Part shown: piece after piece, positions 21,268-29,543 of the stretch
How positions within the stretch are numbered: position 1 is the stretch's first letter
Layout of the letters: every line of letters begins with the position of its first letter
DNA from: a virus
IMG/VR virus record: IMGVR_UViG_3300017917_001940
Span: 1-64,000 of that record
Reading direction: 5' to 3' (one strand)
DNA: 64,000 nt
Position numbers and translations under genes: made by a program
Notes under the pieces: model-generated
Told to the model about the DNA's origin: nothing
What the model saw: the letters and a program-made list of their open reading frames with translations, nothing else
The model's database searches: none

Positions 21268-22875
21268 ATGGCTATCGTACAAATATCAAGAATTACCCAC
21301 CGTAAAGGGTTACAAGAGAACTTACCACAACTAGCTGGTGCTGAATTAGGCTGGAGTATAGATGAACGACGTTTGTTTATTGGTAATGGTACACTTGAAG
21401 AAGGTGCTCCTGTAATTGGTAATACCGAAATTCTTACAGAATTTAGTGATATATTAGCGTTTCAAACCAATTATACCTACAAAGGACAAGCCGCTGGATA
21501 TACCGTGCAAACTGGAGTTACACCCGGAACTCCTATAACACAAAGTTTACAATCATGGTTAGATCAGTTTGCCACAGTTAAAGACTTTGGCGCAACCGGT
21601 GATGGTGTAACTGATGACACCGCGGCAATTAATCGTGCATTGTATCAATTGTATTGTCGAGAAGTAAATCCTCAAATCCGTCGTGGATTATTTTTCCCAG
21701 CTGGTGTTTATCGAGTTACTGAAACAATATTAATACCACCATATGCTTATTTGTATGGTGAAGGAACCGACAGTTCAATTATTCGTTTAGAAGATGGCAG
21801 TGCTGTTGATTATGTTGCACAAACTTGCGACAGCCAAGCTCAAACTGGTGTGAATATAGGTAACGGTGGTGCAATAACACCAACACAAGTGACCATTGCT
21901 AATATGGCATTTGAAACAATGGATAATAATGCCGATGTCTTTTTAGTTGAAGATGCGACTGATTTTATTTTTACTAATGTGAGTTTTATTGGACCTCGCA
22001 CCACAGCCAATTTAACAACAGATTCAAATCCTATCACAGGTGTAGCATTTGCCAGTACGGTCAGCTTGGTTACCACAAACATTGTATTTGACGAATGTTT
22101 ATTTTCTGGATTGACTTATGGTATCGCAACCAACGTCAACTCAAGAGCCGTTACAGTTTCTAGCAGTAAGTTTGACACACTATATCAGGGCGTGTTGCTC
22201 AATGGTACCAATCCAAACAGTTTGGCATATTCTGGCCCGAGCGGTTATAAATTTGTGCAAAATATATTTGACAATATCTATGCTGAAGGTATTAGTTTTT
22301 TAAATGTTAACCTCAATGCTACCGGATATAATATTTTTTATGATGTAGGCAACCACTTTGGTGGTATTACCAATCCATATACAGCATGTCTTAATTTTGA
22401 TAATAACAATAACGTTAGTATCGGAGATATGTATCAAAGACCCGATGATTATTCCGACGGTGAAGTTCTTGGTTCTAAGTGGCCGCGTGTTAATCTTAAT
22501 AACACAACTTCAATTGCTACAACCAATGGTTCTGAAATCAGAATGGGTAACTACGTTCGTAAATCTGGCTTAATCGCAACATTGATTAATAATGAAGCCA
22601 GTCCTATTACAGCGTTTACAGTTACAGACACAGCATTTTCTATTAACTACAAAATTACTCGAGACGTTACTATGCGAACTGGGGTGATCACTGTGGCTAA
22701 TGTTAATGGTACTGGTTCGTTGACCTGGACGGATGATTATGTAGAAAATGCTAGTACTGGTATTGTGTTATCTTTAACACAAAGCAGTGGCGTGGTAAGT
22801 ATAAAATATACCTCAACTAACACAGGCGTTGATGCTGAACTTACCTATTCTGTTACTTCTCTTAGTCTTACCTAA
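21268..22875 (+). CDS. Tail spike/fibre-like protein with pectate-lyase-type beta-helix
   Basis: N-terminal GAELGWSIDERRLFIGNG; VKDFGATGDGVTDDTAAINRA, FFPAGVY beta-helix start. Confidence 0.7.
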   Translation: MAIVQISRITHRKGLQENLPQLAGAELGWSIDERRLFIGNGTLEEGAPVIGNTEILTEFSDILAFQTNYTYKGQAAGYTVQTGVTPGTPITQSLQSWLDQFATVKDFGATGDGVTDDTAAINRALYQLYCREVNPQIRRGLFFPAGVYRVTETILIPPYAYLYGEGTDSSIIRLEDGSAVDYVAQTCDSQAQTGVNIGNGGAITPTQVTIANMAFETMDNNADVFLVEDATDFIFTNVSFIGPRTTANLTTDSNPITGVAFASTVSLVTTNIVFDECLFSGLTYGIATNVNSRAVTVSSSKFDTLYQGVLLNGTNPNSLAYSGPSGYKFVQNIFDNIYAEGISFLNVNLNATGYNIFYDVGNHFGGITNPYTACLNFDNNNNVSIGDMYQRPDDYSDGEVLGSKWPRVNLNNTTSIATTNGSEIRMGNYVRKSGLIATLINNEASPITAFTVTDTAFSINYKITRDVTMRTGVITVANVNGTGSLTWTDDYVENASTGIVLSLTQSSGVVSIKYTSTNTGVDAELTYSVTSLSLT

Positions 22876-23300
22876 TGTGGATTAATATTTTTGAAGACAG
22901 GCTTAAAGCCTGGAATGATCTACGTTCAAAAATTTTGGATGCAGATACCGAAACTGCTCTGCAAAACATCAATGAGTGGTGGTTTGATGCCCCATGGAAA
23001 CCATATTACTTACATTGGGATGATATTCGAGAATGGCCAGATCCCTGGCAACTTTTGAGCGATAACTGGTATTGTGATCTTGCTCGCGCACTAGGAATAC
23101 TGTATACTATCAGTTTGTTAGATCGTGCAGATTTAGGCGATGCAAGGCTGGTTTTGACGGAAGATGGCAGTAATTTAGTCCTAGTTGCAAAAGAAAAATA
23201 TATACTTAATTGGGACAGAGATTCAATCGTAAATACCAACCAAGCAGTAAAAATCAAACGGCAGTACACACAAGAAGAAGTAAAAAAGCAATATCTATAA
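22875..23300 (+). CDS. Hypothetical protein
   Basis: TAATG-coupled ORF. Confidence 0.6.
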   Translation: MWINIFEDRLKAWNDLRSKILDADTETALQNINEWWFDAPWKPYYLHWDDIREWPDPWQLLSDNWYCDLARALGILYTISLLDRADLGDARLVLTEDGSNLVLVAKEKYILNWDRDSIVNTNQAVKIKRQYTQEEVKKQYL

Positions 23301-23316
23301 CTTAAACGAGTAACGA

Positions 23317-24792
23317 ATGACGCAGATAACAGTAGTTAAACGAAGCGGAGCCCGTGAGCCTCTGCACATTGAGAAATGGCAAGCGCAAGTAGCCAAGGTT
23401 TGCCAGGGCATCGCAGACGTAAGTCAGTCGATGATCGAAATCAAAGCACAGCTACATTTTTACGATGGAATTACCACTCAAGAAATTGATGGTATTACCC
23501 TACGTGCTATCGTAGATCTCATTGACGTAGAACAAAATCCTGACGTAGGACATACCAACTATCAATACGTAGCAGGCAAACAACGCTTGAGCATGTTACG
23601 CAAAGACGTTTATGGTGATTACACTCCTCCACCATTGTACGAAATTATCAAGAAGAATGTAGGCGTGGGTCTTTATTCCTCTGAACTCCTCGAGTGGTAC
23701 ACTGAAGAAGAGTGGAACAAGATGGACGAGATTATTGATCATGAAAAAGATGAGCAATATTCATATGCGGCCATTGAGCAGTTGATTGAAAAGTATTTGG
23801 TACGCAATCGTGCTACAAAGGAAATTTATGAAACTCCACAAGTGCGTTACATGGTGGCAGCCGCTACTGTGTTTCACAAAGAAGAACCTGCATCCGCTCG
23901 TTTACGTTATATTAAAGAATATTACAACTGTGCTAGTGATGGCTTGTTTACTTTGGCTACTCCTGTCCTGGCCGGACTTGGAACTCCAACTAAGCAATTT
24001 AGTAGTTGCGTTCTTATACGTAGTGATGATGATTTGGATAGCATTTTTGCCAGTGGAGAAATGATGGCCAAGTATGCCAGCAAACGTGCAGGCATTGGTT
24101 TGGAAATTGGTCGCTTACGTCCACTAGGATCACCTATTCGTGGTGGCGAGATCATGCACACAGGTATGATCCCATTCCTTAAGAAGTGGTTTGGTGACTT
24201 GCGCTCTTGTTCACAAGGAGGTATTCGTAATGCTAGTGCTACTGTGTTTTATCCTATTTGGCATCATCAGTTTGACGATCTTATCGTGCTCAAGAACAAC
24301 CAAGGAACAGAAGAGACACGAGTACGTCACATGGACTACGGCGTGGTCTTATCCGCATTGTTTTGGCGCAGATTTAAGAACAAAGAAAACATAACATTCT
24401 TTGATCCAAACGAAGTACCAGATTTGTTTGAAGCGTTCTATAGCAATACAGAACTGTTTGAAGACTTGTATAAGAAATATGAAAAGCGCAGTGACTTGCG
24501 TAAGAAAGTAATGACTGCTGAAGAAGTATTCAAAGGTGGCATACTTAAAGAGCGTACAGACACAGGACGCATTTATCTTGTGTATATCGATAATGTGATG
24601 AATCAAGGACCGTTTGATCCAGAGTACCACACAATCTATCAGTCAAATTTGTGCCTGGAGATTTTGCTTCCGACCAAGCCGTTTAAGAAACTTGACCCTG
24701 AAAGAAAACTAATCAGAGTTAAGAAAACAGATGTTGAGAAGTTTATGGCGAATAAATCAAACGACATTGTATCAATAAGGAAGATAAAATAG
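23317..24792 (+). CDS. nrdA: Ribonucleotide reductase class Ia alpha subunit, N-terminal piece
   Basis: ATP cone VVKRSG, QFSSC, QSNLCLEI catalytic motif, then a 31-aa non-RNR tail and TAG. Confidence 0.95.
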   Translation: MTQITVVKRSGAREPLHIEKWQAQVAKVCQGIADVSQSMIEIKAQLHFYDGITTQEIDGITLRAIVDLIDVEQNPDVGHTNYQYVAGKQRLSMLRKDVYGDYTPPPLYEIIKKNVGVGLYSSELLEWYTEEEWNKMDEIIDHEKDEQYSYAAIEQLIEKYLVRNRATKEIYETPQVRYMVAAATVFHKEEPASARLRYIKEYYNCASDGLFTLATPVLAGLGTPTKQFSSCVLIRSDDDLDSIFASGEMMAKYASKRAGIGLEIGRLRPLGSPIRGGEIMHTGMIPFLKKWFGDLRSCSQGGIRNASATVFYPIWHHQFDDLIVLKNNQGTEETRVRHMDYGVVLSALFWRRFKNKENITFFDPNEVPDLFEAFYSNTELFEDLYKKYEKRSDLRKKVMTAEEVFKGGILKERTDTGRIYLVYIDNVMNQGPFDPEYHTIYQSNLCLEILLPTKPFKKLDPERKLIRVKKTDVEKFMANKSNDIVSIRKIK

Positions 24793-24813
24793 TAGGTAAT
24801 AGTATTTCAGTCA

Positions 24814-24829
24814 TAAATAAGTGTAGGAG
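24814..24829 (+). promoter_or_regulatory. Late promoter box and SD for the GIY-YIG gene
   Basis: ATAAATA followed by AGGAG in the 43-nt gap after nrdA-N. Confidence 0.55.
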
Positions 24830-24835
24830 AATAAT

Positions 24836-25600
24836 ATGAAATACATTGTTTATTGTCATACACTTAATGGTAAGAAGTATGTAGGCTACACTAAGAAGAC
24901 TATGGTAGAACGGTTAGAAGAACATATCAAAGGAGCATTAGAAGGGTCAGAAAGACACTTCCATCGTGCTATTCGTAAATATGGTGTAGAGAACATAGTA
25001 TCTGAACAGTTATGCGAAACTACTACTAAACAAGCGGCTAAGCGTAAAGAGCGTTATTATGTTAAGCAGTTCGATACATTTAAAAACGGCTACAATATGA
25101 CGCACGGTGGAGATGGTGGTAATACTACTGAGAAGTATTCGGACGAAGAAATGAAAGATTTAAGTAATCGTAGGTCAATGCTACAATCGGGTATGAAAAA
25201 TAGTCGTGCTAAACCCGATATTACTAAACAGATGATAGTAGATGCTGTAGTAAAGTATGCAATTGAGAATAACAAGAGCGGCAACTACATTCTGCGTAAA
25301 GAGATGGACGATGCTCTCAAGCAGGAGTTAGATGTTAGTGTTATGATTATGAAGCAGAGATTTACTAACGGCAGAACAGAACTGTTAGAAGAAGTAAATG
25401 CTAAACTGAGTAAGGCGGGATTAGCGGAAGTAAAGTATGACCCTTACTACAGAAGTGAAGAACAGCGTAAGCAACTATCCTCTGCGACTTCGAGTCATAG
25501 ATGGGTGACAAACGGTGTTAAGAATGTTAAACTTAACGCTGAAGATTTAGAAAAGTTCCTACAAGAGAACAAGACATACAAACAAGGTAGAACATTATGA
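24836..25600 (+). mobile_element. GIY-YIG homing endonuclease inserted in nrdA
   Basis: YIVYCH..YVGYT, FHRAIRKYG, E...GYNMTHGG; C-terminal RWVTNG. Confidence 0.85.
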
Positions 25601-25893
25601 AAACATTAAGAGAGATGATTGATATCGTAGAAGGCCAAAAAGAGCCGTTAGCACAAGTCGGCGACACAGTGGTCTATCACGACTTTACCGGATTTAAGCA
25701 AAAGAAATCAGTTGTTGTATCTATTCACAAAAGAGATTGGGGTTATCAATATCATCTGAAAAATGATGATATCTTAGATGATCTTAGCTTCGAAGAACCC
25801 GGCGGAGCAGAAGTGATCCACAATGAACTCGAAGAAGAAATAACTCCTGAAGCAATAGAAAAAGTAGAATCACTCTACAAGGACAATAAATGA
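25597..25893 (+). CDS. Small acidic protein with capsid-targeting-like N-terminus (passenger in nrdA insertion)
   Basis: MKTLREMIDIVE; ATGA overlaps on both sides. Confidence 0.55.
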   Translation: MKTLREMIDIVEGQKEPLAQVGDTVVYHDFTGFKQKKSVVVSIHKRDWGYQYHLKNDDILDDLSFEEPGGAEVIHNELEEEITPEAIEKVESLYKDNK

Positions 25894-26921
25894 ATCAGCA
25901 AGTGACCTACTATGAAGTAATCGACCAGTTACCCGAAGAGTTAGACGACGAATACGAATACTACGAAATCGATGAAGCCGAAGGTCGTATTGCACTTTGC
26001 ACATTAGGATCGATCAACTGGGGTGCATTCCGTAACCCAGAAGACATGCGTCGTGCTTGCCGCATACTACAGCGTAGTCTATGTAATATATTAGATTACC
26101 AAGATTTCTTAAGTATTCAATCAAAATTATCAAACGAAGAAATTCAACCACTAGGTATTGGTGTGACTAACTTGGCTTATTGGCATGCTAAACGAGGCAT
26201 GAAGTATGGTGAAGCAGATGCACTAGCAGAAGTAAAGAGCTGGATGGAACACCAGGCTTATTATCTTACTGAAGCAACTGTGGAATTGGCCAAAGAACGT
26301 GGCCCATGTAAAGACAGTGCCAAGACCTGGTATGGTAAAGGAATATTTCCTTGGGAGCGACGTGCTCCGGGTGTAAATGAACTAGCAGATTTTACCCCTG
26401 AGCTAGATTGGAACAGCTTGCGAGAATCCATGCAAACGTACGGTGTAAGGAACGCAACGCTGATGGCCATCGCCCCAGTGGAAAGCTCTAGCGTGGTAAT
26501 CAACTCAACTAATGGTATTGAAATGCCTATGAGTTTGATTACAGTTAAAGAATCTAAAGCAGGTTCATTAACACAAGTAGTTCCTGAGTATCACAAGCTC
26601 AAGAACAAATATCAACTCATGTGGGACCAACCTAACTGTGAAGGATACATTAAAACTGCCGCAGTGTTAGCCGCTTATGTTGACCAAAGCATAAGTACTA
26701 ATACATTCTATTCGCCAAAGCATTTTAAGGACAGAAAAGTGCCTACTACTTTAATTGCTAAGAATTTAATGTTAGCCCACTATTGGGGTCTAAAAACCTT
26801 TTATTACAGTCTAATGGATAAGCAAGGTAGTAAAGGGTTTGACGAAACACCAAAGGTCATTACAACTCATGAAGAAGATAGTGATTTGTTAGAAGAAGAT
26901 TGTATCGCTTGTAAGCTATAA
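25890..26921 (+). CDS. nrdA: Ribonucleotide reductase class Ia alpha subunit, C-terminal piece
   Basis: IALCTLG, IGVTNLA, AIAPVESS, KTFYY, terminal CIAC. Confidence 0.95.
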   Translation: MNQQVTYYEVIDQLPEELDDEYEYYEIDEAEGRIALCTLGSINWGAFRNPEDMRRACRILQRSLCNILDYQDFLSIQSKLSNEEIQPLGIGVTNLAYWHAKRGMKYGEADALAEVKSWMEHQAYYLTEATVELAKERGPCKDSAKTWYGKGIFPWERRAPGVNELADFTPELDWNSLRESMQTYGVRNATLMAIAPVESSSVVINSTNGIEMPMSLITVKESKAGSLTQVVPEYHKLKNKYQLMWDQPNCEGYIKTAAVLAAYVDQSISTNTFYSPKHFKDRKVPTTLIAKNLMLAHYWGLKTFYYSLMDKQGSKGFDETPKVITTHEEDSDLLEEDCIACKL

Positions 26922-27610
26922 TGGATTATCAAAAAATATACAACAATTTAATAGATCGTGCTAGAAGCAGGATTGGCGTAGGATATGTTGAAAAACATCA
27001 TATCCTACCTCGTTGCCTTGGCGGTACTGATGCTAAAGAAAATATTGTAAGTCTGTATCCCGAAGAACACTATCTTTCTCATTTGTTGTTATGTAAAATC
27101 TATACAGGAAATCAAAAGTTATTATATGCCACAATGAATATGACTACTGGGTCGATGAGTAATAACGGTAAAAGAAACAATAAAGCATACGGCTGGCTTC
27201 GAAGACAATACGCAGAATCAATGTCAGGCGATAAAAATCCTGCTCGGCAAAATCCTAACTTACAAAAAGAAGCCTCTAAGAAAAGAGTAGGACAAAAGCG
27301 CACAGAAGAAACAAAGGCACGAATGTCAGCGGCACAAAAAGGTCGAACATTTACAGAAGAAACAAAAAAGAAAATGTCACTGGCTGCAAAAAATAAACCT
27401 CCGGTTAGTGAAGAAACAAGAGCAAAATTATCTGAAAAATCTAAAGGTCGAGTTGGCCCGTGGACAGGTAAAACAATGACATTAGAAACCAAAGCAAAAA
27501 TGTCAGCATCTCACAAAGGTAAAAAGATGTCAGACGAGTCAAAGGCAAAAATGAGAATCGCGGCAAAGATTAGAGAAGAAAATAAACGTAAACAAAGAGA
27601 ATTAATATAA
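26921..27610 (+). mobile_element. MobE-like HNH homing endonuclease with NUMOD3 repeats
   Basis: MDYQKIYNNLI..EKHHILPRCLGG..EEHYLSHLLL resembles T4 MobE; RTEETKARMS repeats; sits between nrdA and nrdB. Confidence 0.85.
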
Positions 27611-28710
27611 TGTCAAAAGCCCAATATAATTTAAACACAAAAACTAACTACTTACAACGTAAGATGTTCTTAGATCCTGCCGGTCCTGTAACAATACAAA
27701 GATTCGAGGAGGTAAAATATCAGAAGATTGCCAAGTATGAGCAAGAGGCACGTGGATTCTTCTGGGTGCCCGAAGAGATCTCATTGACCAAGGATGCCGC
27801 GGACTTTAAAGATGCCTCGGACACAGTGCGTCACATTTTCACCAGTAACTTGTTACGCCAAACAGCACTAGATAGTTTACAAGGTCGCGGCCCTAGTCAA
27901 ATCTTCACACCAGTAGTGGGGTTGCCTGAGTTAGAAGCGTTAGTGTATTGTTGGACATTCTTCGAAACCAATATTCACTCACGTAGTTACAGCCACATCA
28001 TTCGTAACATTTACAATGTGCCTAAGGATGTGTTTAACACTATCCATGACACAAAAGAGATTGTTGATATGGCCAGCAGTATTGGCAAGTATTATGATCA
28101 GTTACACGTAATTAACTGTCGTAAAGAAGCCGGTGAACAAGTTGACGAGCGTGAACACGTCAAAGCCATCTGGTTAGCACTCAACGCTAGTTATGGCTTA
28201 GAAGCATTCCGCTTTATGGTTAGCTTTGCCACAAGCCTTGCCATGGTTGAGAATCGTATCTTTATTGGCAACGGTAACATTATCAGCTTGATTTTACAAG
28301 ATGAGATTTTACACAAAGATTGGACAGCCTATTTGATTAACCAAGTGGTCAAAGAAGATCCACGATTCAAAGCCGCCCAGGTAGAGTGTGAAGAAGAAGT
28401 GTATGCCATGTACATGGATGTAATCCGCGAGGAAAAACTTTGGGCAGATTATTTGTTTAAGAAAGGTCCTGTGATTGGTTTGAACGCCGGCATTCTTAAA
28501 GAGTTTGTTGACTACACAGCCGTTGGTGCTCTAAAGGAGATTGGTATTAAATATCAACATCCTGCGCCAAAGACCACACCTATTCCTTGGTTCAACAAAC
28601 ACGTGAACACAAGCAATAAACAAACAGCACTACAAGAAAACGAATCAACCAATTACGTTATCGGAGTTATGAGTGATACTCTTGACTATGATGCGTTACC
28701 ACAATTATAA
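27610..28710 (+). CDS. nrdB: Ribonucleotide reductase class Ia beta subunit
   Basis: FFWVPEEI, ETNIHSRSY, EAFRF, QDEILH, PQL tail. Confidence 0.95.
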   Translation: MSKAQYNLNTKTNYLQRKMFLDPAGPVTIQRFEEVKYQKIAKYEQEARGFFWVPEEISLTKDAADFKDASDTVRHIFTSNLLRQTALDSLQGRGPSQIFTPVVGLPELEALVYCWTFFETNIHSRSYSHIIRNIYNVPKDVFNTIHDTKEIVDMASSIGKYYDQLHVINCRKEAGEQVDEREHVKAIWLALNASYGLEAFRFMVSFATSLAMVENRIFIGNGNIISLILQDEILHKDWTAYLINQVVKEDPRFKAAQVECEEEVYAMYMDVIREEKLWADYLFKKGPVIGLNAGILKEFVDYTAVGALKEIGIKYQHPAPKTTPIPWFNKHVNTSNKQTALQENESTNYVIGVMSDTLDYDALPQL

Positions 28711-28723
28711 TAAGGAGATGAAC

Positions 28724-28945
28724 ATGCGAGCTATTGTATGGAGTAAAGATAATTGCCCCTTCTGTGAACAGGCCAAAGGTTTGTTAAAAATGAAAGGCAT
28801 TGAGTTTGAAGAAAAACGTATCGGACACGGTTACACACGTGAACAATTATTAGAAGCAGTTCCAACTGCCCGAACAGTACCACAGATCTTCTTAGATGAT
28901 CAACTGATCGGTGGTTTTACAGAACTTAAAAAACACTTAGGATAA
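28724..28945 (+). CDS. Glutaredoxin (start re-called to 28724)
   Basis: CPFC, TVPQIF, IGGF; AAGGAG SD. Confidence 0.9.
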   Translation: MRAIVWSKDNCPFCEQAKGLLKMKGIEFEEKRIGHGYTREQLLEAVPTARTVPQIFLDDQLIGGFTELKKHLG

Positions 28946-28946
28946 T

Positions 28947-29252
28947 ATGAATCAAATTGAAAAAGACTTAGTATACACAATCAAGATCGCTAACGGTGAT
29001 GAAGTTATTACAAAAGTAGTAGATATTGATGCCGAAGGCAATTATATCATTCAAAAACCACTAACTATTGTACCCACACGAGAAGGCATTCAAATGATTG
29101 CCAGTTTGTTTACTGCAAATCCTGACAAAAATGCCACACTAAATAAAAGTCAGTGCTCATTAATTGCACTAGCACGTGATGAAGTTCGCGATAGTTATAT
29201 TGAAGCGACCACAGGAATTAAACCTGTAAGCAGTAAAATTTTAATGGGATAA
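28947..29252 (+). CDS. Hypothetical (Sm-like fold possible)
   Basis: VYTIKIANGDEVITKV beta-rich pattern. Confidence 0.5.
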   Translation: MNQIEKDLVYTIKIANGDEVITKVVDIDAEGNYIIQKPLTIVPTREGIQMIASLFTANPDKNATLNKSQCSLIALARDEVRDSYIEATTGIKPVSSKILMG

Positions 29253-29255
29253 ACA

Positions 29256-29543
29256 ATGCCAGCAGTACAGAGACAAGGTGATGCTAATGGAGCAGGTGGA
29301 GTCATCACAGGCGGGGTTGGATCTGTACGAGTAAATGGTCGTCCTATCGCTGTAGCTGGGTTAGGTGTAACGCCACACCCATGTTGTGGTCAGCAAGGTT
29401 GTCCCTCAGTACACTGTTTTGCCAGCACAACAGGCGGAGCCAGAACTGTAAGAGCCGGCGGAGTTCCTGTTAGTCTTACTGGAGCACCTGATACCTGCGG
29501 TGATAGTCGTGCCGGCGGTAGCCCGAATGTAAGGGCTATATAA
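29256..29543 (+). CDS. PAAR-domain spike tip protein (gp5.4-like)
   Basis: MPAVQRQGD, VRVNGRPIAVAG, PHPCC, TCG. Confidence 0.85.
   Translation: MPAVQRQGDANGAGGVITGGVGSVRVNGRPIAVAGLGVTPHPCCGQQGCPSVHCFASTTGGARTVRAGGVPVSLTGAPDTCGDSRAGGSPNVRAI

Follow-up and report, generated by a model that had tools for sequence, protein, structure and literature searches.

The nrdA gene of Aeromonas phage Aeh1 is functional and is divided by the homing endonuclease gene mobE (Friedrich et al. 2007, as cited in PMC3045599). The two products carry tails at the ends that flank the division. NrdA-a has a basic C-terminal tail with an isoelectric point (pI) of 10.4, and NrdA-b has an acidic N-terminal tail with a pI of 3.8 (Crona et al. 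2011, PMC3045599). These tails have been seen in the mature proteins by mass spectrometry, and the split enzyme is fully active (PMC3045599). Activity requires them, as does assembly of the dimer of heterodimers, and their deletion lowers activity approximately 2000-fold. Without tails the halves continue to pair as a heterodimer, but neither the dimer of heterodimers nor the holoenzyme is then formed (PMC3045599). As of 2011 the tails had no database matches (PMC3045599). Here we describe a related split nrdA gene in a 64,000-nucleotide stretch of viral DNA (the window), which comprises positions 1 to 64,000 of the IMG/VR virus record IMGVR_UViG_3300017917_001940 (129.8 kb, completeness estimate 38%). 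With good confidence, though short of certainty, we take this locus to encode an Aeh1-type 'genes-in-pieces' class Ia ribonucleotide reductase, which would be assembled without covalent joining of its pieces and would need the tails for an active enzyme. The mechanism is already established for Aeh1, and the locus is a GIY-YIG-bearing variant whose value is comparative.

Insertions of MobE in nrdA with conserved extensions have been reported, from unpublished data, in several other myoviruses (10.1101/2022.08.31.505936). In T4 topoisomerase II (gp39/gp60) the MobA element likewise adds a C-terminal extension (CTE) and an N-terminal extension (NTE) to the split products (bioRxiv 10.1101/2022.08.31.505936; PMC11461880). 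These extensions are kept after the endonuclease has been lost or replaced by GIY-YIG or VSR-like genes (10.1101/2022.08.31.505936). The MobA system differs from the window in its host gene, in its tails, which are unrelated, and in having a translational bypass element, of which the window has none. Fractured nrdA genes with split inteins form another described class (Dassa et al. 2009, PMC2677866). As in the window, a free-standing endonuclease lies between the pieces near the active site, and it has been proposed that the ends that interact are guided together by their opposite charges (PMC2677866). The products of the fractured genes are, however, ligated by trans-splicing at the catalytic cysteine, whereas no HINT domain is present in the pieces of the window, where the break lies approximately 20 residues further downstream.

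Anatomy of the split nrdA gene

The split gene and the features that lie within it are as follows.

23317..24792, + strand: nrdA N-piece (alpha-a), 491 amino acids; Pfam PF03477, PF00317 and PF02867 positions 1-222
24697..24789, + strand: basic C-terminal tail of the N-piece, 31 codons, net charge +6; not in unsplit relatives
24836..25600, + strand: free-standing GIY-YIG homing endonuclease gene, 254 amino acids, with its own Shine-Dalgarno sequence; PF01541, PHROG 314
25597..25893, + strand: ORF98, an orphan cargo gene of 98 amino acids, from the map of open reading frames (ORFs)
25890..26921, + strand: nrdA C-piece (alpha-b), 343 amino acids; PF02867 positions 222-522
25890..25982, + strand: acidic N-terminal tail of the C-piece, 31 codons, net charge -12, from the charge count

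The N-piece contains the ATP-cone, the all-alpha domain and the first half of the barrel, and the C-piece contains the second half. The match of the N-piece to PF02867 covers profile positions 1-222 and ends at residue 456; that of the C-piece covers positions 222-522 and starts at residue 31. When the pieces are aligned with Escherichia coli NrdA structures, residues 4-463 of the N-piece correspond to residues 5-456, and residues 26-309 of the C-piece to residues 451-734. This places the break in the loop that runs from the C439 equivalent to the C462 equivalent, between the thiyl-radical cysteine and its redox partner cysteine. The equivalents of C225 and of C439/E441 are found in the N-piece, while the C-piece holds the equivalent of C462, the YY pair and the C-terminal CxxC. 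The catalytic residues of NrdA are thus all intact across the two pieces.

Each tail is 31 residues long. The N-tail has ten K/R and four D/E residues, a net charge of +6 and a pI of 10.4. The C-tail has no K/R and 12 D/E residues, a net charge of -12 and a pI of 4.1. An initial annotation, made from the DNA alone, had given the split, the length of the basic tail, the charged residues of both tails, and the cysteines and YY pair on the two pieces as we find them by the ORF map, the charge count and the E. coli alignment; it had also correctly named the splitter as a GIY-YIG gene plus a second gene.

The GIY-YIG gene is a free-standing gene inside a conserved host gene region. Its product has an N-terminal catalytic domain that scores above the Pfam threshold (PF01541, 28.6 bits against a cut-off of 22.6), and it matches PHROG 314, 'homing endonuclease', at 1.8e-25. 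ORF98 shares 4 nt at its start with the GIY-YIG stop and 4 nt at its stop with the start of the C-piece. The C-piece has its own Shine-Dalgarno sequence, AAGGA, 6 nt ahead of the ATG. ORF98 has no Pfam or PHROG match and no homologue among the approximately 200 related loci retrieved.

To compare the window with Aeh1, the Aeh1 nrdA genes were located by a Pfam search of the Aeh1 record. The same loop is broken in both, the Pfam profile being interrupted at 221/222 in Aeh1 and at 222/222 in the window. In both, the basic tail is on the N-piece and the acidic tail on the C-piece, and the order of the pieces, which form one operon with nrdB, is the same. The gap in Aeh1 contains the HNH gene mobE, whereas that in the window contains the GIY-YIG gene and the orphan 98-amino-acid ORF. 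The window further differs from Aeh1 in having a MobE homologue after the C-piece and in tails that are a few residues longer.

The tails are selected as protein and belong to a wider family

The ratio of nonsynonymous to synonymous polymorphism (pN/pS) was calculated from 15-17 distinct sequences and compared with that of the flanking catalytic core and of the off frames. The N-tail has a ratio of 0.23 and the C-tail one of 0.054; the values are 0.16-0.17 in the flanking core and 1.3-2.0 when the same DNA is read in the two off frames. The tails are translated and under purifying selection.

A hidden Markov model (HMM) of the N-tail was built only from IMG/VR N-tails, and its scores were judged against 2000 composition-preserving shuffles. 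The Aeh1 tail scores 16.1 bits and that of the T4-type coliphage e11/2 scores 17.8 bits, and neither score is reached by any of the 2000 shuffles. The core that these tails share is a hydrophobic-x-V/I-K-K stretch, a turn and V-x-x-F. On the strength of this profile match we regard the N-tail of the window as homologous to those of Aeh1 and e11/2, and not as having evolved at this locus, a point on which the 'evolved' clasp of the initial annotation needs correction. The C-tail of e11/2 shares a DDEY motif with that of the window, at the same spacing to the core. The tails appear to form a single family, which occurs in Aeromonas phage Aeh1, in a minority of T4-type coliphages and in numerous uncultured phages.

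The T4-type coliphages e11/2 (KJ668714) and HY01 (KF925357) have the same split and the same tail family as the window. They differ from it in having MobE in the gap, in their enterobacterial hosts and in a core that, in the region of the split, is only approximately 40% identical to that of the window. An e11/2-type tail with MobE in the gap is present in 35 of 764 matching T4-type GenBank records. The nrdA genes of T4, T2 and T6 are unsplit.

In the HY01 record (KF925357; our loci L206 and L209) the nrdA pieces on either side of an annotated 'putative homing endonuclease' lack annotation. Split nrdA genes of this tail family are probably under-annotated in public phage genomes.

Unsplit and split relatives

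IMG/VR was scanned with the N-piece and the closest 80 loci were examined. Contiguous NrdA proteins of approximately 775 amino acids, 88-91% identical to the N-piece of the window, are encoded by 76 of the 80. None of these 76 unsplit relatives has either tail: three residues stand in place of the tail, the gap and the second tail. The tails are therefore not the split form of an older insertion in the loop, an origin that the initial annotation had named as one that would tell against its proposal. No fused full-length NrdA with the C-tail was found among proteins of 602-2000 amino acids, which is weak evidence in the same matter.

Split relatives were found by scanning IMG/VR with an exact degenerate DNA motif of the C-tail core. 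The motif is present in 41 contigs, and a matching basic N-tail is found wherever the upstream piece is on the contig. There are two subtypes of tail, and the N and C subtypes always occur together. The distance from the stop of the N-piece to the start of the C-piece takes at least 16 values. The shortest are 7, 45, 216 and 597 nt, followed by 800-817, 987, 1066 and 1073 nt; the longer ones are 1097 (the window), 1204, 1298, 1322, 1372, 1418, 1466 and 1632 nt. Of the split loci, 28 have related GIY-YIG genes, of 243-274 amino acids, between the pieces. No endonuclease gene is present where the gap is shortest, in the four classes of 7, 45, 216 and 597 nt.

Several families of small ORFs vary between the gaps of split loci. 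Different families occupy the position of ORF98 elsewhere, so that the gap acts as a landing site for cargo genes.

In some of the relatives (L091:2-2607 and L090:250-1236) nrdA is in three pieces. The upstream break follows the conserved SC of the SCSQGG motif and consists of a short intein-like start, a 369-amino-acid ORF and then a piece led by a HINT/intein domain (PF07591, 3.5e-7). The tail-type split lies further downstream. A split intein and a charged-tail split therefore coexist in one gene.

Probable mobility of the cassette

A tree of the C-core was calculated from DNA after removal of the 50 junction-proximal codons. On this tree the split state needs 13 changes, at least nine of which are forced by well-supported branches, and the approximately unbiased (AU) test rejects a single clade of split forms (p 2.7e-5).

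A comparison of the window with a second split contig, G001, gives a mosaic of identities. The N-cores are 67-84% identical. Over 24601-25600, which comprises the last 100 nt of the core, the N-tail and the GIY-YIG gene, identity rises to 94-99%. The cargo at 25601-25900 is unrelated, the C-tails are 89% identical, and identity falls to 67-78% over the C-core, with 74% in nrdB. Such a mosaic would be expected of recent homing with short co-conversion tracts, and it indicates that the tails move together with the endonuclease. The cassette appears, from these alignments, to have moved between diverged nrdA alleles.

Charge complementarity

Five homologous lineages have a basic and an acidic tail, whose net charges are +6/-12 in the window, +6/-14 in L004, +7/-14 in L173, +5/-9 in Aeh1 and +4/-7 in e11/2. 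The same loop is split in two metagenome contigs (L214:49-2567 and L215:2-1361) that have unrelated tails of reversed polarity, -10/+3 and -5/+3 respectively. Here the tail of the N-piece is acidic and that of the C-piece basic, the pieces overlap or are 1 nt apart and no endonuclease lies between them. A third metagenome contig (L220:420-3762) contains a distant split nrdA gene with GIY-YIG/NUMOD3 cargo, and its N-tail keeps a weak V-x-V-K-K patch. The initial annotation had suggested that homologues be surveyed for co-variation of charge. Complementary charges are present in the five basic/acidic lineages and in the two reversed pairs, but not in L220 (-3/-3). Complementarity of charge is frequent and convergent, but it is not universal.

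The C-piece was also used as the query in a search across the whole protein library. Most of the matches are C-terminal halves of split inteins inserted at the catalytic cysteine, and other tail-type C-pieces are also found, among them those of L214, L215 and L220. Split-intein halves of approximately 350 amino acids directly before the catalytic cysteine include library entries P0018, P0025, P0034, P0045, P0061, P0114 and P0124. Cutting of NrdA by split inteins, approximately 20 residues upstream, is apparently commoner than the tail-type split.

Alternative explanations

We find a true split into two ORFs and, in Rfam, Pfam and the boundaries, no sign of RNA or protein splicing, in agreement with the view of the initial annotation that the halves come together without it. 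If the insert were a group I intron carrying the GIY-YIG gene, the tails would be in-frame intron sequence and splicing would restore a normal mRNA. T-even phages have such introns in genes of nucleotide metabolism (PMC3653736), and the layout of approximately 140 nt, an ORF and approximately 380 nt is like that of an ORF-bearing intron. We nevertheless consider an intron highly improbable. A search of 22500-29500 with Rfam 15, on both strands and with E-values up to 1, gave no matches, and at the boundaries (ctt ga/c cct and atc ga/t gaa, the slash marking the junction) none of the three registers combines an exon-terminal U with an intron-terminal G. The would-be core is fully coding, with coupled ORFs, and the tails evolve as protein, with pN/pS of 0.05-0.23. 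Relatives with a gap of only 7 or 45 nt retain both tails, and in Aeh1 the tails occur in the mature proteins, as seen by mass spectrometry (PMC3045599). Joining of the pieces by a split intein, through protein trans-splicing of a 'fractured gene', has precedents in the nrdA genes with split inteins and free-standing endonucleases (PMC2677866), in the many library C-pieces of approximately 350 amino acids that are split-intein halves at the catalytic cysteine, and in the HINT domain upstream in the same gene of L090 and L091. Pfam, however, detects no HINT or intein domain in either piece in the window. The N-tail opens with Pro and not with Cys or Ser, His-Asn is absent from the end of the C-tail, the residue after the C-tail is Gly, and the tails have just 31 amino acids each. 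Trans-splicing is extremely improbable here. Decay of the split gene into a pseudogene, or tails that are neutral read-through leftovers with no function, might be read from the missing annotation of the pieces in some GenBank records such as HY01. This too is very improbable, if a shade less so than an intron: the catalytic residues are all intact, purifying selection acts on both tails and on the two cores, 41 IMG/VR contigs and 35 GenBank T4-type records retain the arrangement, the tails outlast loss of the endonuclease, and the Aeh1 enzyme is fully active (PMC3045599).

A further explanation concerns the way in which the tails act. The initial annotation described them as a heterodimerisation clasp, in which the two tails would pair as beta-strands in an electrostatic zipper and so hold the N- and C-terminal halves together. 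The strongly opposite and conserved net charges of the tails agree with this, as do the constant co-occurrence of N-tail and C-tail subtypes and the two independent splits in which charge is reversed yet complementary; co-occurrence of subtypes is, however, also expected under simple genetic linkage. In Aeh1 the tail-less halves still bind each other, and the defect is found at the next assembly step and in activity (PMC3045599), so the clasp probably names the wrong step. Its strands find no support in structure prediction. An in-frame read-through of L173, comprising a partial N-piece, the 45-nt gap (TAG read as Q and TGA as W) and the C-piece, was modelled with AlphaFold2 from a 109-row alignment. 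The predicted local distance difference test (pLDDT) score exceeds 90 in the core, and residues 147-228, which contain both tails and the linker, have values of 25-48 and no strands. L220, moreover, has no net complementarity. We therefore think a clasp of this kind unlikely, and the interpretation given in the initial annotation is partly supported. Its mechanism is essentially right but had already been published for Aeh1 (Crona et al. 2011, PMC3045599), which it cited for the split alone. By analogy with Aeh1, the tails would contribute mainly to formation of the dimer of heterodimers and of the holoenzyme and to the shape of the composite active site; cohesion of the two halves probably does not depend on them.

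Proposed mechanism

The explanation that we favour, an Aeh1-type ribonucleotide reductase in pieces, would work as follows. A mobile cassette would have been inserted between the thiyl-radical finger loop and the strand that carries the partner redox cysteine. In it, a homing endonuclease gene, accompanied by small cargo that varies, would be flanked by the coding stretches of the two tails, the basic one first and the acidic one last. The two pieces of nrdA would be translated separately from one operon transcript and would assemble non-covalently into a composite alpha subunit, the conserved tails of opposite charge being needed to build the active (alpha-a/alpha-b)2-beta2 enzyme. In this way the tails would make the insertion harmless to the phage, and a harmless insertion could reach unsplit nrdA alleles by homing and survive exchange or loss of the endonuclease.

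The anatomy of the split, the conservation of the tails and the selection on them, the homology of the N-tail and the identity mosaic that points to transfer of the cassette are the observations made here on which this explanation is built. Several points weigh against it. The C-tail HMM scores Aeh1 and e11/2 no better than shuffles, which reach equal scores through their acidic composition. The N-core tree needs 11 changes, and on it the AU test does not reject a single split clade (p 0.127). The tails of L220, with net charges of -3 and -3, have no net complementarity. The L173 read-through model gives no structural picture of how the tails might act. Homing by the GIY-YIG enzyme of the window is suggested by a single line of evidence, the identity mosaic. 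What we infer is that the pieces are translated separately and assemble, that this phage needs the tails and that the enzyme is active in homing.

We also propose, as a possibility on which we are evenly divided, that an old and widespread mobile element has the tail pair, and not any particular nuclease, as its heritable core. The pair would be a portable 'protein-level splice' module that makes a cut in the active site harmless, is moved by MobE, by a GIY-YIG enzyme or by none, and leaves the break as a landing pad for cargo, and independent splits would converge on complementary charge. If this is true, electrostatic complementarity of either polarity would be a general design rule for natural split enzymes.

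To what is established for Aeh1, the present comparison adds that the tails are kept across types and losses of endonuclease, that a cassette appears to have been transferred recently, and that independent pairs with reversed polarity exist. Together the loci offer a natural series of tail variants, including two reversed-polarity pairs and one without net complementarity, for the study of peptide rescue of an enzyme cut in its active site. This is relevant to split-protein design and to the way in which selfish elements neutralise the damage that they cause.

Neighbouring genes

The genes at 23317-28945 form a densely packed run on the ORF map, all in the same orientation, and no terminator was found between the genes of the operon. 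Downstream of the C-piece the run contains the following.

26921..27610, + strand: MobE-like HNH/NUMOD3 homing endonuclease gene between nrdA-C and nrdB; PF07460, PHROG 655
27610..28710, + strand: nrdB, class Ia small subunit, in the same operon; PF00268, 8.2e-41
28724..28945, + strand: glutaredoxin gene; PF00462, 3.4e-13

The product of 26921-27610 is 54% identical to the MobE of e11/2 over 103 amino acids (E 7e-37), and its gene occupies the nrdA-nrdB slot, as does the mobE annotated in T4-type phages. With the GIY-YIG gene in the gap and this gene after the C-piece, the operon therefore contains two different homing endonuclease genes. The MobE-like gene begins on the final base of the nrdA stop and shares its own final base with the start of nrdB. 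The glutaredoxin (28724-28945) is likely to be the reductant for the ribonucleotide reductase.

An ORF of 141 amino acids (22875-23300) lies immediately 5' of nrdA and is found in the same place in relatives, for example at L001:2313-2738 and L086:697-1122. It has no Pfam or PHROG match. An RNA hairpin of the kind described for Aeh1 mobE was looked for over the ribosome-binding site of the GIY-YIG gene, and the signal is not significant (z -1.4). The exact T4 late-promoter box, TATAAATA, is present in two copies in the window, none of them close to the cassette, and a box with one mismatch lies approximately 20 nt 5' of the GIY-YIG start.

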